From the IMG/VR virus record IMGVR_UViG_3300027255_000165: 64,000 bases of DNA; one strand, given 5' to 3'. This document shows positions 1 through 30,284 of the stretch, piece after piece. The stretch comes from a virus. Lineage: Duplodnaviria > Caudoviricetes. The notes under the pieces were generated by a model that saw only the letters and a list, made by a program, of their open reading frames with translations, was not told the origin of the DNA and made no database searches. Both the position numbers and the translations under genes were made by a program. Positions within the stretch are counted from its first letter, which is position 1; every line of letters starts with the position of its first letter.

Positions 1-321
1 TTCAAGAGTCCAATAATACGTTGCAAGTGGGGCAACAAATTCTCTGATAACTCGAGTGTAGATCTCTTTCATACCAACGGCATCCATCAACATATCATTA
101 GTTGGATAGAATTCGTGGCGGCCAAGAGTCCATTCGCCTTGAGTTTCAGCTAGGATGATTAGTTCCTCACAGAACCGTTGAGTAAACAATGGGAACTCAG
201 CTACACTAGGTCCCAATTCATCAATCATCAGCTGATATTCGCCTCTAGCAATTGCCGGATTGATGTATTTGTCAACCCATGCTTGCCAATTTGAAGTGTC
301 TAAGATTTCTGCGTAGTTCAT
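1..321 (-). CDS. PLOD/procollagen lysyl-hydroxylase-like 2OG-Fe(II) dioxygenase (N-terminal part; runs off window start; not in ORF track)
   Basis: Manual translation from ATG at 321 (ATGA overlap with the upstream GT stop): MNYAEILDTSNWQAWVDKYINPAIARGEYQLMIDELGPSVAEFPLFTQRFCEELIILAETQGEWTLGRHEFYPTNDMLMDAVGMKEIYTRVIREFVAPLATYYWTLE. This aligns by eye with the start of the PLOD LH domain (W..KYI...FP+.+...C+EL+...E..G.W..GRH....PT.D+.M..VG). The catalytic HxD..H would lie beyond the window. Confidence 0.75.
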   Translation of the reverse strand, partial: MNYAEILDTSNWQAWVDKYINPAIARGEYQLMIDELGPSVAEFPLFTQRFCEELIILAETQGEWTLGRHEFYPTNDMLMDAVGMKEIYTRVIREFVAPLATYYWTLE

Positions 322-1331
322 ATTGTGTTTATGATGTGTAACCATTGTTCGACTCGAAAGTTCCAGGTTTGCTGCTTTGCCCATTCGTGAGCTCTACGTC
401 TGAGTTTAGCTTTAACCTCTGGAGATCCGTGAAGTACTTTGATTATATTTAGAATGTCAGTGTCTGTTTCACCACTTTCGAGTAAAAAACCTCGATTGCC
501 CACCACTTCTGACAGAGCGGCAAGATTGGTTGTAATAGGTATGGCTCCGCAATATTGCGCTTCCAATGCAGTGATGCCGTAAGTTTCTTCATAATGCGTG
601 GGGTGTAACCAGTACTCTGATTTCATCTGCCAGTTGTGAAGAGTCATTTGATCAACAGTGCCCATATAGGTGACACCGTCTAATTGTGGCAATGGGCTAT
701 TATCTATATCGTACCCGGGCCCGAACACTCTTAGGGTTGCTCCAATGAGATTCTGATGTATTCTAGGCCACATCTTTAGAAGATCATACAATCCTCTTTC
801 ACGGGCAGAAGAATAGATGAATGAATTTGGAATCTTTTCAACTTTCCAAGATGGAAAATCATTTCGATCAATACCGTTACCAATTACGTGGATTGGTTTC
901 TGCAGGCTGTAATCTCTGATCAATTGCTGCTTGTGCCACTCAGTTAGGGCAATGAATCCATTGATTCGAGGATCTTCTAACCATGAGGAATCAATCACAG
1001 CCTCGCCTCTCCACCAAGGAAACCAATCTGTGTTATGGAACCAGAATAGTGACTTATCGAAATTGTTAAACTCTTTTAAATAGTGGAGGTATGATGCAGC
1101 GATCAACAGATCAAAATGTTGTTGATGGCACTGATCAATGTTAAGCCACGTAACTCCATTGTGGAATGTACTTTCTACTTGTCCACCAAAACAAACCGCG
1201 TGACCCCTCTTCGCAAGGCCCTCAGCCAATTTTAGAGCTGCAATCTCAGTACCGCCAACCCCATCGCAGCTTTCAATTCGCTGAGGAGTTATGTTAGTGT
1301 TTTGATAACCTACGTAAACGAGGATCTTCAT
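318..1331 (-). CDS. glycosyltransferase, GT-B fold (GT4/Glycos_transf_1-like)
   Basis: N-terminal GGTE motif, IGNGID, and C-terminal ETYGITALEAQYCG..PI....AAL.EVV (E-x7-E) signature. Confidence 0.85.
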   Translation of the reverse strand: MKILVYVGYQNTNITPQRIESCDGVGGTEIAALKLAEGLAKRGHAVCFGGQVESTFHNGVTWLNIDQCHQQHFDLLIAASYLHYLKEFNNFDKSLFWFHNTDWFPWWRGEAVIDSSWLEDPRINGFIALTEWHKQQLIRDYSLQKPIHVIGNGIDRNDFPSWKVEKIPNSFIYSSARERGLYDLLKMWPRIHQNLIGATLRVFGPGYDIDNSPLPQLDGVTYMGTVDQMTLHNWQMKSEYWLHPTHYEETYGITALEAQYCGAIPITTNLAALSEVVGNRGFLLESGETDTDILNIIKVLHGSPEVKAKLRRRAHEWAKQQTWNFRVEQWLHIINTI

Positions 1332-1398
1332 GTTAAATCGATTTACAATTATATCTAACTCTAATCGATTTGTTTACAGTTTCAATCGTCTATAAACT

Positions 1399-1422
1399 AA
1401 AAAGCCCGCTTTGCGGGCTTTT
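1399..1422. terminator. bidirectional intrinsic terminator
   Basis: AAAAAGCCCGC-TTT-GCGGGCTTTT inverted repeat with A/T tracts on both sides. Confidence 0.8.
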
Positions 1423-1424
1423 AA

Positions 1425-1547
1425 TTAGTTGTTTGCGATATAATCTCGAGCTTCTTCCTGTGAAGAGAATGAAGCAAGTAGATCAGCCTCATTAAGAACG
1501 AAAAACATTGGATTTCCGTTCAAATCAATTCCTTGTTCTATTCTCAT
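1425..1547 (-). CDS. small hypothetical protein, 40 aa (not in ORF track)
   Basis: MRIEQGIDLNGNPMFFVLNEADLLASFSSQEEARDYIANN*; fills the gap exactly between the 1550 stop and the terminator. Confidence 0.6.
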   Translation of the reverse strand: MRIEQGIDLNGNPMFFVLNEADLLASFSSQEEARDYIANN

Positions 1548-1549
1548 GA

Positions 1550-3037
1550 TTATCTAATTCTTTTTGAGTAGTATTCGTAGTTTCTAGCAACTTCAGCGCC
1601 AGTAAGAGCTTTCTTATAAACGTTAATGAATGAAATAGCACCAGAGAACTGTCTGCCATCTCCTTCTTGGCCAATATCAAGTCCTCCAATATAACCATTG
1701 TTACTTGAAACTCTCGTTGCAACCGTATTAACTAGAGTACCATCAATGTATTGTTTTAAATACCCTGTTGAGTAATCCCAAACAGTTGTTAAATGATACC
1801 ACTGATTTCTACTCATTACCTGTGAAGGTTCGTGGTAACCTTGGTTATCAGTTGAATACCAATACGAGCTTAGCCTTTGATTTGATTTGTTCCATGACAT
1901 GTAAATATGCGCTCTCATAATACATCCTCTATCGCCCGATGACAATTCATTTGCATCAGCATAAATCATAGATTCAAGCGTACAACTTCCTGTTCCAAGG
2001 TTTCCAATCTCTGGCGTAACAAACTTTTCAAAGCTTCTAAAATAATAAGCTTTTACTCCTTGAACGTCTTCAACATCGTGTGAACCACCTGAAGCATGGC
2101 GACCTTGACCTGAAAGATCATAGAGAGTTCCACTATTATTAAATGAATTTGGATTAGCAAAATCATAAGAAGCCCATAGTCCATCCACTGTAGGATACAA
2201 GTCTTCATTATGTAAGTGGTACGTTCCAGCATTTGCATTCAACCAAGAGATAGCATCACCCGGTGTTTCAAATGTTGTACCAGCTAACTGAGATGCAATG
2301 TGCTTAAGTTGACCTGCGTTTGAAGCTGCAGAATAGAATCTTGGAGTTACACCATCGTTCGCCCAAACTTGAAGGTCTCTACCAGCACCAGTTGGAAGAC
2401 CAACCATTGAAGTTCTTGCAACCGGCTCAGAACCGTAACCTGACCATTCGCCAAGTTGAGCCTTAGCTTCAACATTAGATGGTACAGCTGCATCTCCTTT
2501 ATGATAGACTGCCTTCATATCATCACCTGTTGCTTTGATCCAAAGCTCAGCTCTGTTAACAGGAACACCAGGACCTGGGAAATTGGTAGCTCCACTCCAT
2601 GAAGAAGCTGAAGCAACTGCAAAGTACCAGTTACCGTGTGGATTTGAGCCATCTAAAAATGTGGTTCCAGTCTGGCTAGATCTAGTAAGACCGTTCCAAT
2701 AGTTATTGTTCCATCCGGTTTCAATTTTAACCACATTATCGACCACCTCCATGATGTCTAGTGGGTTTTGAGCTTGAGACCAGATATTGTTTCTATCAGG
2801 GTATTGAGGATATACAAGTTTGAAAGTGTATTTACCGTCAAATCTAAAGTTCTTAATGTAAGCCATGATTGAATACTTATTCGCACTTGGATTACCAGGA
2901 TTAGACCATTTGGCTTCATCCCAGTCATTAGCCGTGCTAAAGAATTCACCGCCACCTGAATAGTGACTAAATACTTTCATCCACTGTCCGTCAAACTCTA
3001 CTGGATAACCATTATATGTTGATGTTATAATTGACAT
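1550..3037 (-). CDS. virion adhesin-like protein: N-terminal fibrinogen-related-like domain plus C-terminal LamG/ConA-like domain
   Basis: WMKVFSH...NKYSIM..GKYTFKLVYP..N.WSQ..NP..WNGL..S..TFLDG (FReD-like); C-terminal WYHLTTVWD....KQYIDG..FSGAISFINVYKKALT..EVARNY (LamG). Confidence 0.65.
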   Translation of the reverse strand: MSIITSTYNGYPVEFDGQWMKVFSHYSGGGEFFSTANDWDEAKWSNPGNPSANKYSIMAYIKNFRFDGKYTFKLVYPQYPDRNNIWSQAQNPLDIMEVVDNVVKIETGWNNNYWNGLTRSSQTGTTFLDGSNPHGNWYFAVASASSWSGATNFPGPGVPVNRAELWIKATGDDMKAVYHKGDAAVPSNVEAKAQLGEWSGYGSEPVARTSMVGLPTGAGRDLQVWANDGVTPRFYSAASNAGQLKHIASQLAGTTFETPGDAISWLNANAGTYHLHNEDLYPTVDGLWASYDFANPNSFNNSGTLYDLSGQGRHASGGSHDVEDVQGVKAYYFRSFEKFVTPEIGNLGTGSCTLESMIYADANELSSGDRGCIMRAHIYMSWNKSNQRLSSYWYSTDNQGYHEPSQVMSRNQWYHLTTVWDYSTGYLKQYIDGTLVNTVATRVSSNNGYIGGLDIGQEGDGRQFSGAISFINVYKKALTGAEVARNYEYYSKRIR

Positions 3038-3050
3038 TATCTATGTGTGT

Positions 3051-3299: not shown

Positions 3300-5504
3300 T
3301 TATTTGAATCTTGTTACATGTGCATTATAGTTTTGAAGAACTTCACTAGTAGATAAACCTTTATTGTAAATTCTTACTATAGCAATATCTCCACCAAAAT
3401 AATACCCTGATGTATCACCGCCAAATGCTCCAATAGCAGCCCCTTTAGAAGTTGTAACAAGAGCTCCACTTTTAGATTTGCTACGTCTCTCAACTCCATC
3501 AACGTAAATTCGCTTTGTTGAACCATCCCAAGAACCCACAATGTGGTGCCACTGACCATTAACAATGCCAACTTCGGTTTTATTAGGAGCAAATGTATCA
3601 TATCCGCCATCACCTGCGTGGTAAGTTCTAAATACTATATCTGTACCATGGCTAAACAAACTATACTGGGTATTTACATCACCTTTTTCAAATATAAAAT
3701 CATCGCTGTTACCATCAAACCTTACCCATGATTCTATAGTTAATTGTGAAGTATGATTAAATGCTGCGTTATTTGGAATAATAATTTTATCATTCGAATT
3801 ATCAAATTCCCAAAAACCACCATTTGAACTATTCCATCCTGTGCCATTTACCAAAGTTCCTTCAAGAGAATCTGCTAATGAGTACATAGAAGTAGATCCG
3901 CTTTCATAACATATTAAATTACCTGCATCAGCTGCGAATGTTAAACCATTTGTTACAATAGGACCGCCATGCACGTTTTGAGAAACTTCTTCTTGAGAAA
4001 GAATTCTATTGTACAATTTTATTTCTGCTCTAGCTCCATCGTGACACCATCCGTACATTTCACCGAATGAAATGCCTCCACCATCATATAATATTTTACC
4101 AGCTGTTAATGAAATGTCCGTAGTTCCAATCAATTCACCATTGTAATAGACACCCATTGTATTATTATCTCTATTCCAGAAAAAGCTTCTACGATACCAT
4201 TTTCCAAGAGTTTGAAACTTAGAAGGCAGGGGCCATGAAGCGTCAATTGTGTAATTTGACAGTGAGCCATCTGCTAGACCCATTCTAATTGCGGTGTTAT
4301 ATACACCATGGTTCCAATCAAAGCCGATTGACCCAGATCCATAACCACCTGAAATAACAGCACCTGCTGCAGCTTCTGGATATGTGTTATCGTCGATTCT
4401 AACAAGTTCTTCAATTACCCAACCACCTGATGTTTTGGCCATAGCATCATTCAAAGAAGCTGAGTGAGAAACATTAAATTGCAATCTGTCTTTACCACCA
4501 TAATATGCTGGATCAAATTTTGAATCCCAATATCTTTTAGCTGCATTCCATTCTCCTTGACCTTTATAAGCATGGTTTCCATTTCCAGTTAAATCAATCC
4601 AAGTGTTATTCTCTGATCTAGAACCGTGCACAAACGGCGACATAATACTTCCTAATTCAACCATAGGTGCATAGTACCAAACAATATCTCTAGCTTCTCC
4701 TCCGATATAGTTACTCAAATACGCTCCAGTTTCGTTAGATTGAAGAGTTGCAGTACATGAAATTCTGATCCATTGATTAACGGGCCAGTTTGCAGCATTA
4801 GTGTCTCCATTCCAATTAAAATTACCTAAAGAATTGTTATTAACGTTGGTTCTAAAGTAAGGTTGGTTTGAACCAGCTCTTGACTGTCTAAACCAAACTG
4901 AAATAGTGTACGTTGTTGAAGGCAAGCCGCTAAAACCTGCACAACCCCAATGCTGACTACCGGTTGTCACACTCTGACCTCTCAAAATTGTCAATACGTT
5001 TGATGGTCCACCATGATTTGTAAATGGTTTTTCAATATCGGTTGCATTGTTATTAATCGTCCATTCACCGCTGTTAGTCCACGCAATATTAGAATTTGGA
5101 TCACCTGAAGAAAGAAGATTAGTGGTTGGAACTTGATAATAATAGCCTTCATTGTGTTTAGATTCAACGTTCATAATCAATCCATCGGTGACCACATTTG
5201 AGTAGTTACTATTAATGATTAGAACATCATTGTTTTTAGCCCATTCTAACCCTCGAGCTAAATCGTCAACTGCGATTGAAGCTCCCATTTTATTTAGGAT
5301 TTCAATTAATTCATCATCGTTTGATGCAATTCTAGCATCAATGTTACTAGAATAAAGTGCATAACCTCCTGTAGGAATTTGTAAACCGTTGAAGAATCCC
5401 GTTGAAGATGAAGGACCCATACCTTCTTTTGAGGCGATTGACCATCCTCCAACGTTTGATGCATTTGCATCAATGCCAACATTTTTTTTAATTCTATTTG
5501 CCAT
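3300..5504 (-). CDS. multi-LamG / carbohydrate-binding virion protein
   Basis: Two LamG repeats (WYRRSFFW..YYNG..EIKLYNRILSQEEV; WHHIVGSWDG..IYVDG..GDIAIVRIYNKGLS..EVLQNY) and a CBM4/9-like central segment (YTISVW..WIRIS.T). Confidence 0.75.
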   Translation of the reverse strand: MANRIKKNVGIDANASNVGGWSIASKEGMGPSSSTGFFNGLQIPTGGYALYSSNIDARIASNDDELIEILNKMGASIAVDDLARGLEWAKNNDVLIINSNYSNVVTDGLIMNVESKHNEGYYYQVPTTNLLSSGDPNSNIAWTNSGEWTINNNATDIEKPFTNHGGPSNVLTILRGQSVTTGSQHWGCAGFSGLPSTTYTISVWFRQSRAGSNQPYFRTNVNNNSLGNFNWNGDTNAANWPVNQWIRISCTATLQSNETGAYLSNYIGGEARDIVWYYAPMVELGSIMSPFVHGSRSENNTWIDLTGNGNHAYKGQGEWNAAKRYWDSKFDPAYYGGKDRLQFNVSHSASLNDAMAKTSGGWVIEELVRIDDNTYPEAAAGAVISGGYGSGSIGFDWNHGVYNTAIRMGLADGSLSNYTIDASWPLPSKFQTLGKWYRRSFFWNRDNNTMGVYYNGELIGTTDISLTAGKILYDGGGISFGEMYGWCHDGARAEIKLYNRILSQEEVSQNVHGGPIVTNGLTFAADAGNLICYESGSTSMYSLADSLEGTLVNGTGWNSSNGGFWEFDNSNDKIIIPNNAAFNHTSQLTIESWVRFDGNSDDFIFEKGDVNTQYSLFSHGTDIVFRTYHAGDGGYDTFAPNKTEVGIVNGQWHHIVGSWDGSTKRIYVDGVERRSKSKSGALVTTSKGAAIGAFGGDTSGYYFGGDIAIVRIYNKGLSTSEVLQNYNAHVTRFK

Positions 5505-6315: not shown

Positions 6316-8013
6316 TTATACTAATTTAATTGCTAATGTTTGGTCTTGGTCTCCAGATCTAGATAATGAACCCGACTTAGAACCATCCCAAGTGTATGTT
6401 GTTTGTGCTCCATCATTAGTCGTACCCATAACAATAGCATGTTGACCAGTACCCCATCCATATTCGTTATTTACCGATCCGCCGCCATTACGGGCTAAAA
6501 GACCTCTGTTGTTTGGAATATATGAAGCGATTTCAAACAAACCAAATGATGGGCCACCTCTATAGATTTTAACAACAGTTTGGTTTGAAGAATTAACATA
6601 AGATAGTGCAAAAAACACAGTAGGTCCGCCTTGACCATTATCATCTATAACGTGTAATCTAGTAACTCTACATCTCTGAAGTGCATTGATTCCAGTATAA
6701 ATGTATTGTCCGACTTCAGGCCAGTTACATCTGTTACCATCGCGCTCCCACTGATCCCAATTGACTGTAGCAAGTCTAACGATTATTCTATTTTGTGATA
6801 CGTTCATAAATGCATACGCCCAAATATCTCCAAAATCAGGGTGGTAAGCCATCCAATCGATGTGACCTCCAGTGTATTGCCCATAATCTGGTTTACACGG
6901 ATCATTGCCGCCCCAGATGAACTGAATAACATCAGTCTCTGGTGAAGAAGTAAAGGTTGCGTTGTCAGGATCAATTGTGACGTTGTTGATAGCAATATTT
7001 CTACCATATGTAGTACCGTTTGGTTCGTACGTGAAAATAGTAACTACCTTATTGGTATGAGGAGACCATGCAACTCCACCTTGACCACCAAAATTATGGT
7101 CATAAATCCAACCTTGATAGAACACGTCCAATGATTGTGCATTTTGAGTTGTAATTGAAGAACCGTTATGTTTAAATAAAACAAGTCTTGGTCCCCACCA
7201 CTGTCTTTGCCATAGGAACAGACCCGTTCTTAGTCCTGATGGACTAGTCCCAACATCAATAGCATCCAAAGGTTGACCCCATTGGTTTACGCCGTTAATA
7301 GCGTTTCTAGCCATCCAGGAGTTATTGTTAAGTTGGTTAGTTGAAATGTTATATGCTCCAATCGCGGCTGTTGGATTACCATTATCCTGAAGTCTATAGA
7401 TTGTACCAGTGTATTTAAGGTTCGAACTTGGTTCCATACCTCCAAGACCTAATGAAACTGAAGATTGATCTCCAATTGAATCTGTGACGTGATGCCACGT
7501 ATAAACTCTTTGGAATTCAGAGCCATCAGCAGAAAGCCTGTAGATGTTGGTACCAATCCTCCAGTGTTTAGAGTTACCTCCCCACATGTAATAAGATTCG
7601 TAATTAGGACCGTATCCGATGAAAGCGCCATTAAGATCTCCGTTAGTTCCAGCAATCATAGCACCTGAAGCACCTGAATTAGAAGTGTAATAAGGTGAAA
7701 GATCGGATCTCCACATTCCTGAAGAGTATGGAGTAGATTTAACGTAAACGAGATTGTTTCCTACCGTGTCGCCTGACCCAAATATTTGGCTAAAAGATAA
7801 ATTAGTAGCGTTATGGTAACCCGATACTCTAGCGTCGCCAGAGCCATTTGGCATGCCGTCTACACCCAAAAATCCATTCCTATTTACCATCCTAAGTGTT
7901 TCTCCGATGGAAATTCTAGAGCCGCGTTCTCCTAAATAATACCCATTACCTGTTGAAATATCAGCTCCTAGCTTACTAAGCTTTAAATTTGATAGAGACT
8001 GTTTAGATAGCAT
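6316..8013 (-). CDS. hypothetical virion protein, Gly/Asn/Trp/Tyr-rich, beta-rich (possible distal fibre adhesin)
   Basis: 565 aa ORF directly downstream of an S74-bearing fibre gene; composition is typical of fibre tips; no recognised family. Confidence 0.5.
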   Translation of the reverse strand: MLSKQSLSNLKLSKLGADISTGNGYYLGERGSRISIGETLRMVNRNGFLGVDGMPNGSGDARVSGYHNATNLSFSQIFGSGDTVGNNLVYVKSTPYSSGMWRSDLSPYYTSNSGASGAMIAGTNGDLNGAFIGYGPNYESYYMWGGNSKHWRIGTNIYRLSADGSEFQRVYTWHHVTDSIGDQSSVSLGLGGMEPSSNLKYTGTIYRLQDNGNPTAAIGAYNISTNQLNNNSWMARNAINGVNQWGQPLDAIDVGTSPSGLRTGLFLWQRQWWGPRLVLFKHNGSSITTQNAQSLDVFYQGWIYDHNFGGQGGVAWSPHTNKVVTIFTYEPNGTTYGRNIAINNVTIDPDNATFTSSPETDVIQFIWGGNDPCKPDYGQYTGGHIDWMAYHPDFGDIWAYAFMNVSQNRIIVRLATVNWDQWERDGNRCNWPEVGQYIYTGINALQRCRVTRLHVIDDNGQGGPTVFFALSYVNSSNQTVVKIYRGGPSFGLFEIASYIPNNRGLLARNGGGSVNNEYGWGTGQHAIVMGTTNDGAQTTYTWDGSKSGSLSRSGDQDQTLAIKLV

Positions 8014-8082: not shown

Positions 8083-11000
8083 TTATGCTTGTTTTAGCAA
8101 ATCAATCTCAGCTTTTAGCTCTTTGATTGCCTCAACTAGAACTGGAATTACACCATCATAATTCACTGACAAGAATGGTTCGTGAGTCACAGGATCGATA
8201 TTTGTTGATACCAATTCTGGGATTACTGCTTTAACTTCTTGTGCAATGAAACCGTATTGAGTGCCTTCTCTTCTTTCATCTTTCCATGTGAAGGTTGTAC
8301 CTCTTAGGGCTTCAATCTTAGCTAGACCAGATGATAGAGTTGCAATGTTCTCCTTTAGGTTTTGGTCAGATGCAGTTGATGAGTAAGCTACGATATCGCC
8401 TCCGACGTGCAGTTGACCTTTTAGAGCCATGTTACCATCAGTAGAGATAGAAGAAGCTACATAACCATCAGATGCAACGAAGGACCAACCTCTGTTGGAC
8501 TGTCTGTTCATTGTGAAAGTTAGAGCGTAGTCAGTAACCCAGCCGTAATCGGCAACGTCATTACCCATACCAATACCGTAAGAAGAATCAGTACCCCACA
8601 TTCTGTACTTAGTCCAGTTATTACCTGCGTCCGTGTAGTGATAAGATCCACCGTTTGGACCTGTAGCACCTGTAGCACCTGTAGCACCTTTAGCACCGCC
8701 AGCACCTTGAGCACCTTGAGCACCTTGAGCACCTTGAGCACCTGTAGCACCTTTAGCACCAGGAGCACCACCTGGACCGCCTGGACCCTGGTAACCTTGA
8801 GCACCTTGAGCACCAGTAGCACCTCCGCCACCAGTAGCACCTTGAGCACCTGTAGCACCATTTACACCTGAAGAACCAGATGTACCTGATGAACCTGAAG
8901 TACCTGCAGCACCTTGAGCACCTTGAGCACCTTGAGCACCTGTAGCACCTCCGCCACCTGTAGCACCTTTAGCACCATTTACACCTGAAGAACCAGATGT
9001 ACCTGATGAACCTGAAGTACCTGCAGCACCTTGAGCACCTTGAGCACCTTGAGCACCTTGAGCACCAGTAGCACCTGTAGCACCTCCGCCACCTGTAGCA
9101 CCTTTTTGACCAACAGGGCCTTGGTAACCTTGAGCACCTTGAGCACCTTGAGCACCTTGAGCACCTGTACCACCTTGAGCACCTGTACCGCCATTTACAC
9201 CTGAAGAACCAGATGTACCTGATGAACCTGAAGTACCTGCAGCACCTTGAGCACCAGTAGCACCTGTAGCACCTTTTTGACCAACAGCTCCTTGAGCACC
9301 TTGAGCACCATTTACACCTGAAGAACCAGATGTACCTGAAGTACCTGAAGTACCTGCAGCACCTTGAGCACCTTGAGCACCTTGAGCACCTGTATTACCC
9401 GTAGCACCTTTTTGACCAACAGCTCCTTGAGCACCTTGAGCACCATTTACACCTGAAGAACCAGATGTACCTGAAGTACCTGCAGCACCTTGAGCACCTT
9501 GAGCACCAGTAGCACCTGTAGCACCTTTTTGACCAACAGCTCCTTGAGCACCTGTAGCACCTTGAGCACCAGTAGCACCTGTAGCGCCATTTACACCTGA
9601 AGTACCTGATATACCGTCTACACCTGCTGCACCTTGAGCACCAGTAGCACCTGTATTACCAATTGGACCTTGGTAACCTTGAGCGCCTTGAGCGCCTTGA
9701 GCACCTGTAGCACCTGTAGCACCTTTTTGACCAACAGGACCTTGGTAACCTTGAGCACCTTGAGCACCTTGAGCACCTTGAGCACCTTGAGCACCTTGAG
9801 CACCTGTATTACCCGTATCACCTTTTTGACCAACAGCTCCTTGAGCACCAGTAGCACCTTGAGCACCATTTACACCTGAAGAACCAGATGTACCTGAAGT
9901 ACCTGCAGCACCTTGAGCACCTTGAGCACCTGTATTACCCGTATCACCTTTTTGACCAACAGCTCCTTGAGCACCTGTAGCACCTTGAGCACCATTTACA
10001 CCTGAAGAACCAGATGTACCTGAAGTACCTGCAGCACCTTGAGCGCCTTGAGCGCCTGTATTACCTGTTGAACCTTTTTGACCAACAGCTCCTTGAGCAC
10101 CTTGAGCACCATTTACACCTGAAGAACCAGATGTACCTGAAGAACCAGATGTACCTGCAGCACCTTGAGCACCAGTAGCACCTGTAGCACCTTTTTGACC
10201 AACAGCTCCTTGAGCACCTTGAGCACCATTTACACCTGAAGAACCAGATGTACCTGAAGTACCTGCAGCACCTTGAGCACCTTGAGCGCCTGTATTACCC
10301 GTAGCACCTTTTTGACCAACAGCTCCTTGAGCACCTTGAGCACCATTTACACCTGAAGAACCAGATGTACCTGAAGAACCAGATGTACCTGAAGTGCCAT
10401 TAGCACCTTGAGCACCTCTAGCACCTTGAGCACCTTGAGCACCTGTAGCACCAATTAGGCCAGAATTAGGACCAATCCATTGACCTGAAGAATTTAGGAT
10501 TGGTGTACCGTTGACCGTAACGTTGTTATCCGGTCTTAGGTGAATGTCCTGATCAGCGAAGATCTCCAAATCTTCTGGAGAATCTGTATTTGCTGCAATG
10601 AATGTTTCTGCCGCGTCACCTGCAAAAGCAATTTTTGCTGTACCCGGAAGAATGATATTACCATCAACTGTTAGCTGACCATTAACTTGAGTTTTACCAA
10701 GTTGTAGACCTGTGGTTGCATTAGAACCAGAGATCGATTTAGCCGAGTTAATAGTGATGTCTGAGTTAAATGTAACACCGCCAGTCGAATTAAAATTCAT
10801 ACCACCCTCTTGAGCAGAGAATTGTAGAATACCGTTGTTAAGAGTTTTAATAACAAGGTTTTGACCTGGATCGGTTGAAATGTTAATAGTGTCGGAGTTA
10901 TCCTCGATGACTTTCTTACCATTAACATATAGTGAGTTTGGACCAACAAAAAGTTCATCTACATTGATCTGTGATGTTTTGGTGGCTTCGTCGAATGTAA

Positions 11001-11334
11001 TTAGATTGTATTCATTTCCAAGAGCATCCGTAAATGCTACGTTTGGAGGAAGAAGGGTTTTATCTGCATCACGACCAAGCTGACCAGTAATATACTCGTG
11101 GAGGTGAGTCATCTCATTCTCAAGTGCCTTAACACCACGTGTAAGTTCATCAACGATTGGACCCATTGCAAAAAGCTTGGTGTAAGATTCATCAGCACCG
11201 TAAGCATTTGCAGTTTTACCTGCAGTTGTTCTTGTAGTGTCAATGAACTTAGCTTTTAGTAATTCTGCATCGGAATCCTTTAGAACGAATGTAGATCTAA
11301 ACGTTGCTAAGTCTTTAAGACTAATTCTAGACAT
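8083..11334 (-). CDS. collagen-like tail fibre with C-terminal peptidase S74 (intramolecular chaperone) domain
   Basis: About 600 aa of Gly-X-Y (GAQ/GAT/GQK/GTS, ~8650-10452); C-terminal SDQNLKENI...[22 protein letters not shown]+IP+LVEAIKEL. Confidence 0.9.
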
Positions 11335-11356
11335 TTTCTTATCTTGTTTTTTTAAG

Positions 11357-11384
11357 AAAAGGACCCGGTCCGAAGACCGGGTCC
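11357..11384 (-). terminator. intrinsic terminator with cUUCGg tetraloop
   Basis: - strand GGACCCGGTC-TTCG-GACCGGGTCC-TTTTCTT. Confidence 0.9.
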
Positions 11385-11397
11385 GCTTTCAGCTTAT

Positions 11398-17300: not shown

Positions 17301-18228
17301 CAGAAGTACCAGAAGTACCAGAAGTACCAGAAGTACCAGATGAACCTGAAGAACCGCCAGTACCATTTGTACCAGATGAACCTGAAGTACCTGAAGTGCC
17401 TGAAGTACCAGATGAACCTGAAGTACCAGATGAACCTGAAGTACCTGAAGTACCCGAAGTACCCGAAGTACCTGAAGTACCAGATGAGCCTGAAGTACCT
17501 GAAGTGCCTGAAGTACCAGATGAACCTGAAGTACCAGATGAACCTGAAGTACCTGAAGTACCCGAAGTACCTGAAGTACCTGAAGTACCAGATGAGCCTG
17601 AAGTTCCGTCTGTACCAGATGAGCCTGAAGTTCCGTCTGTACCAGATGAGCCTGAAGTTCCGTCTGTACCAGATGAACCTGAAGTTCCGTCTGTACCAGA
17701 TGAACCCGAAGTACCTGAAGTACCTGAAGTACCTGAAGTACCTGATGTACCATCTGTACCTGATGAACCTGAAGTACCAGATGAACCGGAACTACCGTCC
17801 GTACCATCTAGACCCGAAGTTCCAGATAGACCTGAAGTACCAGATGAACCTGAAGAACCTGAAGTGCCTGAAGTACCCGAAGTACCTGATGAACCGGAAC
17901 TACCGTCCGTACCATCGGTACCGTCTGTACCTGATGAACCAGATGAGCCTGAAGAACCTGAAGTACCCGAAGTACCTGAAGAACCAGATGTACCTGAAGA
18001 TCCAGATGTACCTGAAGTTCCTGAAGTACCAGCGGTACCAGAAGTACCAGAAGTACCAGACGAACCAGACGTACCTGAAGAACCAGAAGTACCAGACGAG
18101 CCAGACGTACCTGATGAACCCGAGGTACCCGAAGTTCCGGCTGTGCCGGAAGTACCTGAAGTACCGTTAGTACCTGAAGAACCAGAAGAACCTGAGGTAC
18201 CTGTCGTTTTAATTAAAGGAATTGCCAT
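11398..18228 (-). CDS. giant (2276 aa) Ser/Thr-rich Gly-X-Y fibre protein with vWA domain, collagen segments and S74 chaperone
   Basis: Long [12 protein letters not shown] runs; vWA with MIDAS ([18 protein letters not shown], ~16330-16998); three ATIDVAP..GTPVEV.NIG..NA.F.FTIP modules; C-terminal [25 protein letters not shown] (S74). Confidence 0.9.
15540..15975. repeat. ~430-bp near-identical direct repeat, copy A (copy B at ~17319-17754)
   Basis: Sequences compared by eye; the unique anchor CCGCCA is at 15575 and 17354 (offset 1779 = 593 codons), and rare synonymous variants are shared. Confidence 0.8.
17319..17754. repeat. ~430-bp near-identical direct repeat, copy B
   Basis: See copy A; the two copies flank the vWA module. 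Confidence 0.8.
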
Positions 18229-18258: not shown

Positions 18259-19017
18259 TTAATCTAGAGCTGATTTGTTGTAGATGATGTCAATAATGTC
18301 ATCTGCAGTCAAATCAAATCCTGAAAGTTCGCCGTTCCAGTATAATTCGTCGCCGGCTTCGATGTCAGCAATCAGCTTAGCTGTTAGACCTCCGTCATTG
18401 GAGAAGTAACAGTCTGATGTTCTAACACCGTTTCCTTCTTGAACACCAACACCGTTGACTAGAATGTCAACCGCTGAATCCAAGAAAGGAGTGTAATTAA
18501 TTGTAATGCCCGTCGCTGAATAATCACCGTTGGTTGGTAGAGGGTTTTGATCTCTTTGGTACACTTCGACTCCTGTGTCGACTGGTGCGCCACCAACTGA
18601 TGGTCTCCAAGGAAGGACATGTGCTGTCGTTTCGGTAATTGCCTGCATGATTGGGTTACTGTATGCATACGCGTCGTTTGTTGTGAACAATACAGGATTA
18701 CCCGTTCCTGAATCGTCAACAACATAAAACGCACCTGGGACAAGATTCCAAGTAGCAACTGTTACCTTACCAACCTGAACACCGACAAAAGTGTCGGCGG
18801 ATGGAGTTGATTCAATAACAATTCTACCTAGTTTGTCCTCAATAGATGCATCAGCAAGGACCCATGTACCACCGTCGAAGGCAACAACCTGACCTGCTGA
18901 GAAGCCATGGCCAACCTGTGTAAAGGTTGACTTTAGCGATCCAGACGTGATCGAAAGAATGATAGCGTCAAGAATCTCTTGCAAGCCATCAATCTGTTTG
19001 ATTTTGATTTGAGACAT
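18259..19017 (-). CDS. putative fibre/baseplate-associated structural protein (shares a C-terminal module with 25529..27490)
   Basis: First gene of the fibre operon; C-terminal TGI.I.YTPF.DS.V.+.+NGV...G.G....DCYF..AKLI.DI..GD.L.WN...D.I..IY. Confidence 0.6.
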   Translation of the reverse strand: MSQIKIKQIDGLQEILDAIILSITSGSLKSTFTQVGHGFSAGQVVAFDGGTWVLADASIEDKLGRIVIESTPSADTFVGVQVGKVTVATWNLVPGAFYVVDDSGTGNPVLFTTNDAYAYSNPIMQAITETTAHVLPWRPSVGGAPVDTGVEVYQRDQNPLPTNGDYSATGITINYTPFLDSAVDILVNGVGVQEGNGVRTSDCYFSNDGGLTAKLIADIEAGDELYWNGELSGFDLTADDIIDIIYNKSALD

Positions 19018-22229: not shown

Positions 22230-23420
22230 TTAGAAATATGTATTAGTTTGCCAATTGTAATTGTAACTTAATTGATGTTTATCCTTTTCAAAGAGATTTT
22301 CGATTAACTTCTCGTAAGTATCTAATAGATCTTGGTTTTTGACAGTGTATCTGTCTAGTACCTTTTGATTTCTTAGCTTATACTCTTCTAGATTATTATC
22401 GTGTTCTTCAATTGCATATTTTAATTGATTGTATCCCTCATTGACATTGAAATCTGAATAGTAGTACCCTGCATCCTTGATCATATCAGCATTGTGAACT
22501 AGTGGAAATCCAAAGTACATCACGTCTAGATAAGAATAATTTAGTGGGTTTTCCCACTGATGTGAAACTATAACGTCAGCTCCATTAGCTAAGTAGTGAG
22601 TAACGGGGTATCGTGATGTGAAACTAATCTTTGGACCTTGTGAGCCATTGACAATATCCATAGTCGCAATCATTGACTTAAAGTATCCATTCTTAAGAAG
22701 TCTTTGTCCACTCGCCACATTCATTTTCTTAAATTCTACACCTTCTCTAAGTGCTTTCTCTGCAATCATAATAGGTATCATTGCATATTTGACTACGTTT
22801 AAGTTAGGTTCAAATACTGATAGAAGCTTTTCAGAGTTTTCTTTACCTGGAATGTAGTATGGCGTTTTTGTCTTTTTAATTCTTGCCCTAAGCACCTCAA
22901 TATCTAAAAACATAGGATCCCATACAAAAGGAACTGGGAAAACGTTTTCATTTCTAAATGCAACCTTATAGTATTCATGATTTTGATAGCCCTGTTGGGG
23001 TACGTACCATAATTGATCGGCTCCTGGATCCCATGGTGCTTTACCCAGATCATTACCTTCTTTAAAAATAGAACGCTCCATATCAATTACATAAGAATTA
23101 CCGCACATGTATTTGACAACCTTCTTATTTGGTCCTGATTTTCTGAATTGATCTAAAATCTCAGTTGGAAAAGAAGTTCCAAGTGTTATTAAAATATCCA
23201 CGGTTGGATATACTTTCCAATAATCTTCGATTGGAAATTTATTAACGTCCCATGAAACCTTTGATAGATCTGTTACCTTTCGGCTAGTATCGAGAATTAC
23301 AACTTCATATTTGCCTATTTTCATTAGAGCATTTGCTAAGAGCAGGGCATTCAATTTAATACCGTTGATCCATATACTTTCGTAATCGGATTGTAGACCG
23401 ATTGTGATTCCTATCTTCAT
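22230..23420 (-). CDS. DUF2827-like protein (predicted glycosyltransferase-like)
   Basis: MKIGIT..SIW.NGI..N..L..; FEPN..VVK...IP++I.E; SHQWEN.LNY.Y.DV+Y.G.PLVHN...Y.Y..F (recalled family motifs; not searched). Confidence 0.55.
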   Translation of the reverse strand: MKIGITIGLQSDYESIWINGIKLNALLLANALMKIGKYEVVILDTSRKVTDLSKVSWDVNKFPIEDYWKVYPTVDILITLGTSFPTEILDQFRKSGPNKKVVKYMCGNSYVIDMERSIFKEGNDLGKAPWDPGADQLWYVPQQGYQNHEYYKVAFRNENVFPVPFVWDPMFLDIEVLRARIKKTKTPYYIPGKENSEKLLSVFEPNLNVVKYAMIPIMIAEKALREGVEFKKMNVASGQRLLKNGYFKSMIATMDIVNGSQGPKISFTSRYPVTHYLANGADVIVSHQWENPLNYSYLDVMYFGFPLVHNADMIKDAGYYYSDFNVNEGYNQLKYAIEEHDNNLEEYKLRNQKVLDRYTVKNQDLLDTYEKLIENLFEKDKHQLSYNYNWQTNTYF

Positions 23421-25528: not shown

Positions 25529-27490
25529 TTACAGGTCGTAAGAAGAAGCCTGGTAAATAACGTCAATATCATCTGATGGATCTAGTCCATAACCTGCATA
25601 GGTAGGGTTCCAGATCAATACGTCGCCGGATGCAATGTCTTTAATCAGCTTGGCGACCATTGCGTTTCCATCAGTATTGTAACCTGAAAGGGTAGGATCT
25701 GTAAAGTAACAATCATCTTCGTTGTCTCCATCTCCGATGTTAACTTCAACACCGTTAATTTTAACAATTACATCGCTATCCTGGAATGGAGTGTAGTCGA
25801 TATTGATTCCTGTCACATAGTGATCGTGTGTTGTGGTTGAAGCCACAACCTGGTTTTTATCAACTGATACATTAACTCCCGTTTCTGGTTCGTCATTAAC
25901 GCCTTCTAGCATTAGAAGAACTGCAGAAGAACCCGCTGATGAAGATGTGATACCGTTTTGGTTGATATATGTTCCATTACCGGTGATCATTAGATCTCCA
26001 CCATCTTGTCTTGTTAAAATCAAGAAGTCAGCTCCGTTTGCAGGGGCTGAAGCCGCGATACCAAAACCTGATAGGAATGTATCTCCTAGAACGTCAACGT
26101 CAGTTGTTGTGATAGAGATTGAAGCCGTTGATGTAATAGCTTGAATCTTCAATTGTCCAAAGGTAGATGAGTAAGCTCCGTCTCCTGGTATGATTGCGAT
26201 TGCTTCAAGATCTAGGCCATCAGCTTGAAAAGCAGCGTTAAAAAGATCAGCTGCGATCTGAGCATTAACCAATAGGTATTCCGGTGCATCTGGATATGCG
26301 ATTGGAGAAGTTACTGTTGTTTGGTCAAATAGAACTGTTGTTGAATTTGTACCATCGCTGATTGTTACATCAATCTGGGTGTAACTTGCGCCTGTGTTAT
26401 CTGATAGCGCTAGGATTGATACACCATTAGTTGCAACAGATGCGTTAGAAAGCAAAGATGAAAACTCTGATTCTTTAGATGCTGTGATATGGTGATCATC
26501 AGTTGATACGTTAATTAGGTCAACAAAATCTTGAACTGTTGAAACTTCATCTGAAGAACCATCAAACACTGGAATCTCATTAAAGATAATCATGTCTGAA
26601 GAACCCGGTAAGTAGTTTGAAATAGTAGCTCTAACTTCAGTTTGAACTGGATCTTTAACTTGTAGGAAAAGTGCTTTAGCTCCTCTTGAAGCAGTTGTTG
26701 TGATTCCACCAGGAACTGTAGGGTCCATGTAGTAGATTTCACCAGCATTACCATTAAGAAGTTCAGGGTTTGAGTGGTTATCAATTAACGTGTTAAATGG
26801 CTTAATGTAAACTACAGTGTCATTCATTGTCTTTTCAAGAACCAAACCAACTGGAACTTCTGCAGCACCCGGAGTTCCAAGCTTTACAAACTCGCCTTCA
26901 GCTGAAACTGTAATAATGTCGCCTGAATTATAACCTGTTTGAGAAGTTGAAAATTCAAATCTGTATCTTTCTGTTTCTTCTTCAGCTGCAAAGCGACCTT
27001 GGATCTTATCCATTGACGCTGGAGTTGGAAAGAAAGATTGAACTGCCCCAGTAGTTAGAAGAGGCACATTGTTATCTGAAACTTCAAAGAAAGCTAGCTT
27101 AGAATTTGTTGTAAGATAATTTGAAGCGTAAAGTTTATACGCAATCATATCTACGTCTTTTGCGATAAAAGAAATAGACGTTTCGGATTTAGTTTCGATT
27201 GATTCAATCTTTAGAACAATCTGACCATTTTCACTTGTAACCCAATCTCCAGACTTAATGTCCAATCCATTGTACTCTTTAACGTTACCTGAACGAGAAT
27301 TAGCAGTACCGATGGATTGCGAAGTTACTTGATCAACTGTGATTTCAAAGGTGTAATATGCACCGGTTGCTTTAATGCCAGTTGAATCCTCATAAGGATA
27401 CTGATCTAAACCGTTAATAGATGTGATTCTACCGGATAGAAATAGGGGTGGATTGGTTGGATTGTAGATTGCCATAGTCTTAGAATACAA
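25529..27490 (-). CDS. putative structural protein (653 aa)
   Basis: Thr/Ser/Asp-rich beta-type composition; C-terminal module shared with 18259..19017. Confidence 0.6.
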   Translation of the reverse strand: MYSKTMAIYNPTNPPLFLSGRITSINGLDQYPYEDSTGIKATGAYYTFEITVDQVTSQSIGTANSRSGNVKEYNGLDIKSGDWVTSENGQIVLKIESIETKSETSISFIAKDVDMIAYKLYASNYLTTNSKLAFFEVSDNNVPLLTTGAVQSFFPTPASMDKIQGRFAAEEETERYRFEFSTSQTGYNSGDIITVSAEGEFVKLGTPGAAEVPVGLVLEKTMNDTVVYIKPFNTLIDNHSNPELLNGNAGEIYYMDPTVPGGITTTASRGAKALFLQVKDPVQTEVRATISNYLPGSSDMIIFNEIPVFDGSSDEVSTVQDFVDLINVSTDDHHITASKESEFSSLLSNASVATNGVSILALSDNTGASYTQIDVTISDGTNSTTVLFDQTTVTSPIAYPDAPEYLLVNAQIAADLFNAAFQADGLDLEAIAIIPGDGAYSSTFGQLKIQAITSTASISITTTDVDVLGDTFLSGFGIAASAPANGADFLILTRQDGGDLMITGNGTYINQNGITSSSAGSSAVLLMLEGVNDEPETGVNVSVDKNQVVASTTTHDHYVTGINIDYTPFQDSDVIVKINGVEVNIGDGDNEDDCYFTDPTLSGYNTDGNAMVAKLIKDIASGDVLIWNPTYAGYGLDPSDDIDVIYQASSYDL

Positions 27491-30284
27491 ATATTACGTA
27501 TGCGTGAGCGTTTCTTGCAGAAGAACCCAAACCTGATTTATTACCGTATTTAATAAAGTCTTTTCTTACGTCAAGTGTCATTGATGTTGTAAATGCACCA
27601 TTTAAGAAGTTTGGAACAAGTTGATTTGTGCCAGACGTAGAGAAGTTTGCAGCTGCAGAATCAATTTTAGCTAGTGCAGCGTCAACTCTGTAGGCGTGAA
27701 CTTCATACTTGTAAGTTGCAGGATCCCATGCAAGAACCTGAATTGCAAGTGGTGGATTTGATTCATTGAATGAAACTGTAGCTGTATAAATTGCCGTTGA
27801 AGTATTAACTGAAACTGAGTCAACTGATGCGTTTGCAGTCAAGAATCCAGTTGCAGAAACAAACTTGTTATCTGTAGTGTTATTAACTAGGTGGTTTGAT
27901 GAATCATATTCAAGTCTTAGTAGATACTTGTTAGTTCCTGAACCAGAACCTCCTGAGATAGTAGACCACTGTACGTTATATGGGTTAGAGTCAATTTTAA
28001 CAAGCGCTTGACCTGATGTACCACCTGAAGGAATTCCAAGACCATTAGTACCTGAAGAACCTGACGTACCATCTGTACCTGAAGAACCTGAAGTACCATT
28101 AGTACCCGAAGAACCAGAAGTGCCGTCCGTGCCAGATGAACCTGAAGTACCTGAAGAACCCGAAGTACCATTGTCACCTGAAGTACCCGATGAACCTGAA
28201 GTACCATCAGTTCCTGAAGAACCTGAAGTACCGTCTGTGCCTGATGATCCTGAAGTACCATCAGTTCCTGAAGAACCCGAAGTACCATTGTCACCTGAAG
28301 TACCTGAAGAACCCGAAGTACCATTGTCACCTGAAGTACCCGATGAACCTGAAGTACCATCAGTTCCTGAAGAACCTGAAGTACCGTCCGTGCCTGATGA
28401 TCCTGAAGTACCATCAGTTCCTGAAGAACCCGAAGTACCATTGTCACCTGAAGTACCTGAAGAACCCGAAGTACCATTGTCACCTGAAGTACCTGAAGAA
28501 CCAGAAGTGCCATCAGTACCTGATGAACCTGAAGTGCCGTCTGTACCTGAAGAACCCGATGTACCGTCTGTGCCAGATGAACCTGATGTGCCGTCCGTGC
28601 CTGATGAACCTGAAGTACCATTATCTCCTGAAGTACCTGAAGAACCCGAAGTACCGTCTGTACCTGAAGAACCCGAAGTACCGTCTGTACCTGAAGAACC
28701 CGAAGTACCGTCTGTACCTGAAGAACCCGAAGTACCGTCTGTACCTGAAGAACCCGAAGTACCGTCTGTACCTGAAGAACCCGAAGTACCGTCTGTACCT
28801 GAAGAACCCGAAGTACCGTCTGTACCTGAAGAACCCGAAGTACCATCAGTACCTGATGAACCTGAAGATCCACTTGCTAATGAAGAAGCACTAATTACAT
28901 AAGGGTCTGCAACTGTACCAGAACCCGAAACATCAATGTTAGTTCCAGCCTGTGTAATACCTCCAACGCCATCTGTACCAGATGAACCAGAAGTACCATC
29001 AGAACCTGAAGTACCATCAGTGCCTGAAGAACCTGAAGTACCATCAGTACCTGAAGAACCAGATGAGCCTGAAGTACCATCAGTACCTGAAGAACCTGAA
29101 GTACCATCAGAACCAGATGAGCCTGAAGTACCATCAGAACCTGAAGAACCAGATGAGCCTGAAGTACCATCAGTACCTGAAGAGCCAGATGAGCCTGAAG
29201 TACCATCAGTACCTGAAGAACCAGATGAACCGTCAGAACCTATTACACCATCTACACCTGCAGGACCCTGTGGACCCGCTACGCCATCAGTACCTGATGA
29301 ACCTGAAGTACCGTCTGTACCTGAAGAACCTGAAGTGCCGTCTGATCCTGCAGTTCCTGAACCAGAACCTGCTCCACCAAACATATCAATGTCATAACTA
29401 ATGTACTGTCCTACTTCCCATACGTATGGTGAAGCAACTGGAGAGTATGAGCTATCTTCGTATGTAACTAGAACTTCAGTGTAATCATTATCGTTATCGT
29501 CTCCTCCACCGGCTTCAGCGTTAATTCTATTATAACCTGTAATTTCGTAGATAGCGTATTGGTTTGGAGAACCTGCGTTTGTAACAACGATGTTAGCGTT
29601 GACGTTAGAACCGCCCGGGTCTCTCTTTATCAGATAATTTTCAAGCAGTACGTTTCTAACGTTGTTCTGATCTAAGTTGTAAAACTTGATTGAAGTTACC
29701 AGTGAAGGATCAGAGGCATTGAACGTGACTGATTTCAGTGATGGGTTTGAGCCATCAACTGCAGATACTTGGTATCTAACGTAAGGGCTTGAAGCGTTAC
29801 TTGAACCTGAAAGTGAAGTTGATCCTGAACCCGATCCTGAACCAGAACCTGAACCTGAACCAGTACCTGTAATACTTGATCCGCTAACTGTACCAATCAT
29901 CAACTGTGGAATAATGTAAGTCTTCGCTGATGGATAGTAGTTAGAGTATGTGATTGTTACTTGAGCATAAAGGTTACCATTGGCCAGATTTGCGCTCTGG
30001 TTTGGTGTGATCGAGAAAGAGATGTAACCCTGCGTTGCTGTTGCTGGGTTACCCATTGTTAGAAGATCAGTAATACCCGAAATAACTGGGTTTGAGTACT
30101 GATACATCTTTTGTCCTAATGAATTGTACAGAGATACCGTAATTGAATCGGCATCAGCGGCATTCAACTGATTGTTGATGTAGTCTTTGTACAAGATTAG
30201 CTCGACGGTCGATGGTTGGCCAGCAACCACTGAAAGGTTACTGCCGATATAAACCATTATGTCATCCTTTGAAACGTAAGGCAT
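27480..30284 (-). CDS. Ser/Thr-rich Gly-X-Y repeat virion protein (934 aa)
   Basis: GTDGTSGSS / GDNGTSGSS repeats (~28040-29370) between globular N- and C-terminal domains. Confidence 0.8.
28639..28827. repeat. perfect 27-bp tandem repeat x7 (encodes GTDGTSGSS)
   Basis: Unit GAAGAACCCGAAGTACCGTCTGTACCT starts at 28639, 28666, 28693, 28720, 28747, 28774, 28801, plus a partial copy. Confidence 0.85.

Follow-up and report, generated by a model that had tools for sequence, protein, structure and literature searches.

Candidate collagen-modifying enzymes among the long collagen-like fibre genes of a huge T4-like phage

Enzymatic modification of collagen, in which lysine (Lys) is converted to hydroxylysine and then to glycosyl-hydroxylysine, has so far been described for animals and one giant virus, and we found no published description of a lysyl hydroxylase (LH), of collagen Lys modification or of sulfated fibres in a bacteriophage. 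The question of what such enzymes might do in a phage is raised by a 64,000-nucleotide stretch of viral DNA (Duplodnaviria; Caudoviricetes; IMG/VR record IMGVR_UViG_3300027255_000165), which we refer to as the window and whose first 31 kb are the fibre module of a huge T4-like myophage. In this module three very long Gly-X-Y proteins (colA, colB and colC) are interleaved with an LH, several glycosyltransferases (GTs), a DUF2827 protein and two sulfotransferases, one of them fused to a J-like domain (Table 1). As far as the sequence allows, we lean somewhat towards the interpretation that these soluble enzymes modify the phage's own fibres in the host cytoplasm before trimerisation. This interpretation is the most economical one because a PLOD-type hydroxylase, DUF2827 and a J-linked sulfotransferase resembling the tyrosylprotein sulfotransferases (TPSTs), whose contexts or relatives point to protein substrates and all of which are soluble, lie among genes for long trimeric fibres. 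The hydroxylase-GT step is its best supported part and sulfation its least supported one. A preliminary description of the same DNA had proposed such a system from the letters alone, and Pfam searches recovered its three Gly-X-Y proteins, GT4, two GT2s, DUF2827 protein, sulfotransferase and double GT where it had placed them; three fibre genes that it had not listed, two for ConA/LamG proteins and one for a coiled-coil fibre, also lie in the module.

The LH gene is truncated by the edge of the window, and sequence beyond position 1 was therefore read from two identical metagenome contigs (L001 and L002), the full gene being recovered at L001:11011-11634 together with its catalytic residues, all of which fall outside the window. 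By homology, the oxygenase that had been called 'PLOD-like' is a true PLOD-family lysyl hydroxylase: in phmmer searches residues 13-200 of its 207 residues matched residues 515-713 of human LH3/PLOD3 (E 7e-29, 104 bits), followed by mimivirus L230 (E 3e-22), with the next family, P4H, reaching only 9e-4. The HHD motif, the distal His and the Arg of the GTRY motif, which are the iron and 2-oxoglutarate (2OG) residues, line up with their LH3 counterparts and do not vary among 13 homologues, and this homology with intact catalytic residues suggests that the phage enzyme would hydroxylate Lys. Pfam alone misses the PLOD identity because it returns only sub-threshold OGFOD2-like and 2OG-FeII_Oxy_3 matches.

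The start of the LH gene overlaps the stop of the GT4 gene by 4 nt, and the same GT4-LH adjacency is seen in L020/L021 and in the phage relative G005. The gene order in the window's clade is collagens, glycosyltransferase, LH, HAD phosphatase and ATP-grasp ligase, and in G004 the upstream partner of LH is a GT2. In G005 the LH orthologue (57% identity) is fused to a GT25 (5e-22) in a 431-aa protein, GT25 making up the N-terminal and LH the C-terminal half, and a GT4 lies upstream. A scan of IMG/VR returned 201 LH loci, the best 80 of which were analysed and represent 50 distinct LH sequences; among these best 80, most LH sequences lie at the C-terminus of open reading frames (ORFs) of ~430-500 or ~730-795 aa. 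Thirty distinct LH loci had an upstream flank complete over 10 kb; collagen genes were present within 10 kb in 21 of these, directly upstream of LH in 20. Lys made up at least 5% of Y positions (up to 57%) in 26 of the 30 collagen-bearing LH loci. Within the phage lineage that carries DUF2827 (see below), all seven LH-positive contigs encode collagens with Lys at Y, and six of the ten LH-negative contigs, including the complete 256-kb genome G001 (two collagen genes read), encode Lys-free ones; these counts, uncorrected for relatedness, suggest that the presence of LH tracks Y-Lys collagens in this lineage.

Three further observations concern LH-family genes. Stand-alone relatives of ~200 aa are common in metagenomes, and two chromosomal contigs of Thiotrichales (L014 and L019) encode stand-alone PLOD-family hydroxylases, 48-59% identical to the phage LH, among housekeeping genes and with no collagen gene within 10 kb. 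The LH gene is followed, here and in relatives, by genes for an LNS2/PNKP-like HAD phosphatase and an R2K-clade ATP-grasp ligase (L001:11635-13013), which may be a further protein-modification pair linked to LH. At L020:8352-8951 an extra 2OG-FeII_Oxy_3 oxygenase, whose nearest solved relative is the PKHD-type hydroxylase PiuC, is flanked on one side by the GT4-LH pair and on the other by a collagen gene whose product contains Pro and Lys; this oxygenase is a possible prolyl hydroxylase partner.

The fibres themselves match Pfam Collagen with E values from 1e-55 to 9e-200. All 25 Lys residues of the repeats occupy the Y position (13 in colA, 12 in colB and none in colC), and 23 of them, in colA and colB, form the X-K-G sites that the preliminary description had pointed out. 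They are regularly spaced in colA, where 10 of the 13 lie in a repeated V-G-Q-K-G motif (nine as G-A-V-G-Q-K-G) that recurs every 33-66 residues, mostly every 39-45. The Gly-X-Y repeat of colA is a single unbroken run (residues 292-897; 606 residues, 202 triplets), chiefly G-A-[Q/T/S], with mostly Ala at X and mostly Gln, Thr or Ser at Y. By comparison, colB and colC consist of G-[T/S]-[S/N/D] repeats, those of colB comprising 1542 aa in 7 runs (514 triplets, mostly G-T/S-S), with Ser/Thr occupancies of 0.80-0.90 at X and 0.64-0.68 at Y; the earlier statement that Ser or Thr fills nearly every X and Y position is accurate for most positions of colB and colC and does not apply to colA. The abundant N-G-T sequons are likewise a property of colB, which has 53 N-G-[ST] sequons, compared with 7 in colC and 2 in colA, and the suggestion of N-glycosylation was not borne out, no GT41/HMW1C- or PglB-like candidate enzyme being found. 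Tyr is almost absent from the repeats and Pro occupies at most 3% of X and ~0% of Y positions, so that the Pro/hydroxyproline richness of animal collagens is not seen. At an assumed 0.286 nm per residue, the repeats would be, from the longest to the shortest, ~440, 170 and 120 nm long. Pfam detected the S74 chaperone domain in colA and colB and none in colC, whose N-terminal domain is conserved and found in all relatives.

Evidence that enzymes and fibres belong together also comes from the conserved cassette around DUF2827. Orthologous loci among 56 IMG/VR loci (37-62% identity) gave the order 233-aa protein - colC N-terminal domain protein - (653-aa protein) - coiled-coil fibre - DUF2827 - (GT2s) - (J-like protein) - (252-aa protein) - collagen genes, with the J-like protein frequently encoded on the other strand and the number of collagen genes varying from one to four. 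The core order is kept in dozens of IMG/VR contigs, including divergent relatives, and the arrangement is therefore not due to chance. Collagen genes follow every orthologous DUF2827 locus, despite compositions that range from Ser/Thr-rich to Asp/Gln/Lys-rich. With regard to the co-occurrence of enzymes and collagens that the preliminary description had anticipated, the expectation thus held for the LH loci given above and for all DUF2827 orthologues, and it failed for the sulfotransferases, which are absent from the relatives' cassettes. In bacteria, DUF2827 genes lie constantly beside genes for trimeric autotransporter adhesins and have been proposed to encode cytoplasmic glycosyltransferases (bioRxiv 10.64898/2026.01.22.700529). 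A tblastn search of the GenBank phage set gave no match to DUF2827. As to the accompanying GT2s, orthologues of the 376-aa enzyme come after DUF2827 in most relatives, and homologues of the double GT2, which in the window lies outside the fibre module, are found between DUF2827 and GT2 in four loci (L039, L041, L043 and L060). The 376-aa enzyme has a Pro/Lys/Glu-rich N-terminal extension of ~130 aa, probably disordered, that is absent from its ~260-aa orthologues.

The two sulfotransferases of the module belong to different families. The 234-aa enzyme (ST234) matches PF03567 over just 28 residues. Its assignment is supported by 27% identity (E 3e-19) to a phage paralogue whose own PF03567 match reaches 4e-21, and an RNPYDRxxS motif, resembling the 3'-phosphate-binding (PB) motif, is visible in its sequence. 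A third sulfotransferase (PF03567, 4e-21) with an adjacent cytidylyltransferase-like gene lies ~10 kb past the window edge, within L001:16026-21014. The J-domain-sulfotransferase fusion of the preliminary description is real. Its J half corresponds to the ~200-aa cassette protein of relatives, with C-H-P-D invariant in five orthologues, and the profile of these orthologues matches only J domains in the Protein Data Bank (PDB), albeit weakly (best E 7e-4). An assignment of the relatives' ~200-aa protein to the sulfotransferase half of the fusion was rejected, as it aligns with the J-like half. The C-terminal domain represents a separate family of stand-alone proteins with invariant GHPRTGTG, GHE and R..P..S motifs, the last reading VRNPxxSxxS in the fusion, and it gave no significant match in Pfam, in PDB sequence profile searches or in hhalign against two Sulfotransfer_2 proteins. 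A model of the whole 401-aa protein from a 5-sequence alignment was usable for the J region only (pLDDT 45), and the C-terminal domain was modelled separately with an alignment of that domain alone. The resulting AlphaFold model (pLDDT 91) is best matched by TPST1 (Z 11.0), TPST2 (Z 10.5) and OLS sulfotransferase (Z 10.4), sulfotransferases as a group reaching Z 10-11 over 160-175 residues compared with Z 8-9 over 110-125 residues for P-loop kinases. By its predicted structure the domain has a sulfotransferase fold, nearest to that of the tyrosylprotein sulfotransferases.

Fibre maturation could accordingly be pictured as a series of steps in the host cytoplasm. Host DnaK would keep the nascent collagen-like chains unfolded, recruited by the J-like protein of the cassette, here joined to a sulfotransferase in one polypeptide. 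The PLOD-family hydroxylase would then convert the regularly spaced Y-position Lys residues (G-Q-K-G and G-A-K-G among the 23 X-K-G sites) to hydroxylysine, and the translationally coupled GT4 would glycosylate hydroxylysine or extend its glycan. DUF2827 and the GT2s may glycosylate Ser/Thr or other residues on the collagens or on the coiled-coil fibre, and the two sulfotransferases, with host 3'-phosphoadenosine 5'-phosphosulfate (PAPS), may sulfate glycans or protein hydroxyls. Finally, the C-terminal S74 chaperones would nucleate trimerisation, the helix would zip up and the chaperone would be cleaved off. In its fullest form, which we regard as rather doubtful, the scheme would yield proteoglycan-like fibres, that is, Pro-free Ser/Thr collagen helices of several hundred nanometres that bear both hydroxylysine-linked and O-linked glycans and subsequently undergo sulfation, with the J-domain-sulfotransferase fusion presenting unfolded chains via host DnaK. 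Roles of such a coat in stability, mimicry or shielding, as put forward in the preliminary description, are speculation.

A number of findings weigh against modification of the fibres by the whole set of enzymes. The collagens of this phage are Lys-poor, with Lys at 2-6% of Y positions, and the triple helix of the Pro-free G-T-S repeats is only putative, its stability being uncertain with Pro so scarce at X and Y. The LH lacks the GT25 partner of its relatives, since tblastn found no GT25 in the window or in L001/L002; four of the ten LH-negative contigs of the DUF2827 lineage encode Lys-rich collagens (all four contigs are incomplete); and no collagen is found near the LH-family genes of Thiotrichales chromosomes or of several other phages. 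The DUF2827-collagen loci come from one phage lineage with shared synteny and are not independent of one another, and 30%-identical DUF2827 paralogues occur elsewhere in the genomes, three of four such loci being without collagen neighbours and the fourth (L072) having a short 156-aa Gly-X-Y ORF. For the GT2 and GT4 enzymes NCBIfam returned generic hits only, well short of any equivalog cut-off, and the Pfam DnaJ match of the J-like domain (14.5 bits) is below the cut-off of 27.8. Neither sulfotransferase recurs in the relatives' cassettes, none of which contains the sulfotransferase half of the fusion, so that the fusion is peculiar to this phage and any sulfation would be lineage-specific, and the stand-alone relatives of the fused enzyme lie beside genes for GT2, GT25, UDP-glucose dehydrogenase, epimerase, GLF and carbamoyltransferase. 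These neighbours suggest a glycan rather than a collagen role, and because the stand-alone homologues sit among sugar genes, the acceptor of the fused sulfotransferase could equally be a glycan.

Such neighbourhoods are also what would be expected if only the fibre genes were structural and the GTs and sulfotransferases, merely residing in a hypervariable fibre region, remodelled host envelope glycans (lipopolysaccharide O-chain, capsule or surface glycoproteins), for instance against superinfection or readsorption. We judge this explanation, the main rival, unlikely, albeit worth serious consideration: it has been published for GTs that lie in the hypervariable tail-fibre region of pelagimyophages, polysaccharide, teichoic-acid and colanic-acid transferases are weakly matched by the GT2 and GT4 enzymes, the fused sulfotransferase has stand-alone relatives among sugar-nucleotide genes, and ST234 belongs to a family of carbohydrate sulfotransferases. 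However, none of the module's enzymes has a transmembrane segment (19 proteins of 1-40 kb scanned), and no flippase, polymerase or initiating phosphoglycosyl transferase was seen in the window. Remodelling of the envelope would moreover leave the PLOD-family protein hydroxylase, the J-like domain and the strict DUF2827-collagen order unexplained, and bacterial DUF2827 tracks fibrous adhesins, not polysaccharide loci.

A division of labour, in which LH and the adjacent GT modify the few X-K-G sites of the fibres while DUF2827, the GT2s and the sulfotransferases serve to make or alter a different product, for example a free or carrier-bound sulfated glycan or another virion protein such as the coiled-coil fibre, appears quite improbable to us. 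LH and its GT are indeed separable from the rest of the block, lying at its far end and being absent from the complete genome G001, which keeps DUF2827 and collagens; DUF2827 always comes after the coiled-coil fibre gene, as bacterial DUF2827 accompanies adhesins rich in coiled coils; and the range of collagen compositions downstream of DUF2827 means that no common acceptor is evident. Yet the whole block is co-oriented and tightly packed, its Ser/Thr-rich repeats are an obvious surface for O-glycosylation, and no alternative acceptor is better supported. We attach very little weight to a further explanation, that some of the GTs, DUF2827 in particular, glycosylate phage DNA in the manner of T4 alpha-glucosyltransferase, thereby evading restriction. 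The Atlas (language-model) look-alikes of DUF2827 are GT-B enzymes that include the T4 DNA alpha-glucosyltransferase family (score 0.91, taken as a lead only), and the LH gene borders nucleotide- and replication-related genes. But the block contains no hydroxymethylase or other DNA-hypermodification gene, the position of DUF2827 is fixed between fibre genes in every relative and is linked to adhesins in bacteria, and DNA glycosylation has no role for sulfotransferases or a protein hydroxylase.

Modification of the phage's own fibres can also be compared with known systems. Its closest counterpart is mimivirus L230, which hydroxylates and glucosylates viral collagen (LH domain, PDB 6ax6), together with animal PLOD3/LH3 and COLGALT1 (GT25). 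Akin to these, the phage encodes a homologous LH domain with aligned iron and 2OG ligands, beside a GT and near virus-encoded, Pro-poor collagens with Lys at Y, and its relative G005 carries the same GT25-LH domain pairing, as in the animal COLGALT/PLOD pathway. Unlike L230, in which GT25 and LH are combined in one polypeptide, the phage LH is a stand-alone protein of 207 aa whose neighbour is a GT4 (GT-B) and not a GT25; in addition the host is bacterial, the collagens are mainly of the Ser/Thr type and the activity is deduced from sequence.

Akin to the phage module, bacterial operons for collagen-like and tail-collar proteins encode 2OG-Fe dioxygenases and sulfotransferases as well as PAPS synthetases, for which hydroxylation followed by sulfation has been predicted (Iyer, Abhiman, de Souza and Aravind, 2010; PMC2938197), a collagen- or fibre-like substrate being co-encoded with a dioxygenase and sulfotransferases in both cases. 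Their dioxygenases, however, are of the beta-hydroxylase and PhyH families and not PLOD, the loci are bacterial and not a virion block, the PAPS synthetases have no counterpart in the window, where none was found, and GTs and a J domain are not part of that prediction. The DUF2827-adhesin loci of Burkholderia, Veillonellales and Pasteurellales (bioRxiv 10.64898/2026.01.22.700529) share with the phage a member of the same Pfam family beside genes for long trimeric fibrous surface proteins, although the phage neighbours are collagen-like and coiled-coil fibres and not autotransporters; the function of DUF2827 is putative in both.

Mycobacteriophage virions are glycosylated by phage glycosyltransferases (Freeman et al., 2023, as cited in PMC12582341), and that system resembles the present one in having phage GTs next to structural genes and a cytoplasmic modification of virion proteins. 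It is not known to include hydroxylase, sulfotransferase or J-domain components. Its targets are reportedly the C-termini of capsid and tail-tube proteins, not collagen-like fibres. BclA, a collagen-like exosporium fibre of Bacillus anthracis, and the Gtf-glycosylated serine-rich repeat adhesins are Thr/Ser-rich surface fibres whose O-glycans are added by dedicated GT4 and GT2 enzymes of the cytoplasm. GalT1, the best solved relative of the 251-aa GT2, acts on one such adhesin, Fap1. The phage enzymes share only the generic GT2 and GT4 folds with these systems, and fibre architecture and organism differ. Finally, human TPST1 and TPST2 (PDB 5wri and 3ap3) are the best structural matches of the fusion's C-terminal domain, with 170 residues aligned, and the phage domain has a GHPRTGTG motif like that for 5'-phosphosulfate binding and a PB-like VRNPxxSxxS motif; in contrast, no sequence homology is detectable, the phage domain has ~200 aa compared with ~270, and the phage repeats are almost free of Tyr.

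The remaining features of the window are consistent with the phage origin that had been assumed. Genes for T4-type sheath, large terminase, clamp loader, major head protein, prohead protease and portal are found at 41-61 kb, and a gp15-like sheath stabiliser is also encoded. Closest among known records are the uncultured huge phage LR756500 (462 kb; sheath 49% and capsid 52% identity), the Prevotella Lak megaphages and jumbo phages of Tenacibaculum, and the host is probably a member of the Bacteroidota. The same sequence recurs across many metagenomes, the GT4 protein being indexed in 201 blocks of a public assembly collection (ENA, JGI, NCBI, Logan). Nearly all genes of the window are on the minus strand, the fusion gene being the plus-strand exception in the fibre module. 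Outside the window, L001:16026-21014 encodes a full DnaJ, ribosomal protein S21, PhoH, RNase HII and an Fpg/Nei glycosylase.

Several side observations concern the structural genes and their surroundings. In colB a von Willebrand factor A (VWA) domain (residues 412-575) lies between collagen runs and recalls the VWA-containing collagens of animals. In L001, otherwise identical to the window, the collagen gene beside the 565-aa gene encodes 992 aa with a colB-like start (L001:271-3249, compared with window 8083-18228), which reflects a repeat-mediated deletion, colA/colB recombination in the population, or assembly collapse. The 252-aa and 653-aa proteins, both conserved cassette members, have in common a domain of ~70 residues with the pattern I-[TD]-Y-T-P-F...V-N-G-V...D-C-Y-F. 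Atlas searches with the 252-aa and 565-aa proteins returned viral hypothetical proteins only, and neither Pfam nor PHROG matched the 565-aa protein. A cluster of seven tRNA genes (33433-35332) includes Gly(GCC), Thr(UGU), Ser(UGA) and Ala(UGC). In the collagen genes GGT accounts for 84% of Gly codons, ACT and ACA for 91% of Thr codons and TCA and TCT for 89% of Ser codons, and 57% of all their codons specify Gly, Thr or Ser; the tRNAs of the cluster match these dominant codons and may serve the translation of the phage's own repeat genes. A 751-aa protein without family match (37252-39507) is strongly hydrophobic around residue 133 (Kyte-Doolittle mean 2.77), and no other clear membrane segment was found in the 19 proteins scanned.

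Table 1. Genes of the fibre module and the outlying double glycosyltransferase, in order of window position.
Feature	Position	Strand	Details
Lysyl hydroxylase (LH), stand-alone, 207 aa	1-321	-	N-terminal 107 aa in window, cut by edge
GT4-family (GT-B) glycosyltransferase	318-1331	-	Glyco_trans_1_4 4e-12; Glycos_transf_1 3e-9
ConA/LamG fibre protein	1550-3037	-	C-terminal Laminin_G_3 7e-15; phrog_16097 long tail fibre hinge connector 1e-19
ConA/LamG virion structural protein	3300-5504	-	Laminin_G_3 5e-27; phrog_8510 virion structural protein 6e-26
ST234, Sulfotransfer_2 (carbohydrate sulfotransferase) family, 234 aa	5608-6312	-	PF03567 30.7 bits (cut-off 22)
565-aa protein, probably structural	6316-8013	-	adjoins colA
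colA, collagen-like fibre	8083-11334	-	1083 aa; Pfam Collagen E 2e-79; C-terminal Peptidase_S74 E 4e-18
colB, collagen-like fibre	11398-18228	-	2276 aa; Collagen E 9e-200; C-terminal S74 4.5e-5; internal VWA
252-aa conserved cassette protein	18259-19017	-	directly upstream of collagen genes; relatives' orthologues 51-57% identical, same position
J-like domain + sulfotransferase-fold (predicted) fusion, 401 aa	19156-20361	+	J ~residues 1-200, HPD 92-94; C-terminal ~200 aa
GT2, 376 aa	20341-21471	-	Glycos_transf_2 4e-9; DSD motif at residue 239
GT2, 251 aa	21474-22229	-	Glycos_transf_2 2e-15; best solved relative 5hea GalT1, 3e-10
DUF2827, putative GT-B glycosyltransferase	22230-23420	-	PF10933 298.8 bits, E 6e-89, profile positions 1-362 of 362
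Coiled-coil repeat fibre, 642 aa	23531-25459	-	immediately upstream of DUF2827 in nearly all relatives
653-aa structural protein	25529-27490	-	C-terminal domain common to 252-aa protein
colC, collagen-like fibre	27480-30284	-	934 aa; 414 aa Gly-X-Y, 138 triplets (G-T/S-S/D)
233-aa protein	30325-31026	-	conserved upstream edge of cassette
Two-domain GT2	35671-37122	-	beyond tRNA cluster

If the fibres are modified, phages of bacteria would possess a complete, soluble and cytoplasmic collagen-modifying toolkit, and DUF2827 would gain a testable function. Compact tools for the production of modified recombinant collagens would also become available, namely a 207-aa hydroxylase and a ~200-aa sulfotransferase family without a Pfam model. 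Were the fibres indeed proteoglycan-like, both a sulfated virion component and a sulfotransferase coupled to a chaperone would be new to bacterial viruses. Such a system would bear on the origin of the animal pathway, on how collagen helices without Pro are stabilised and on the way in which the surface of virions is adjusted to adsorption or shielding.

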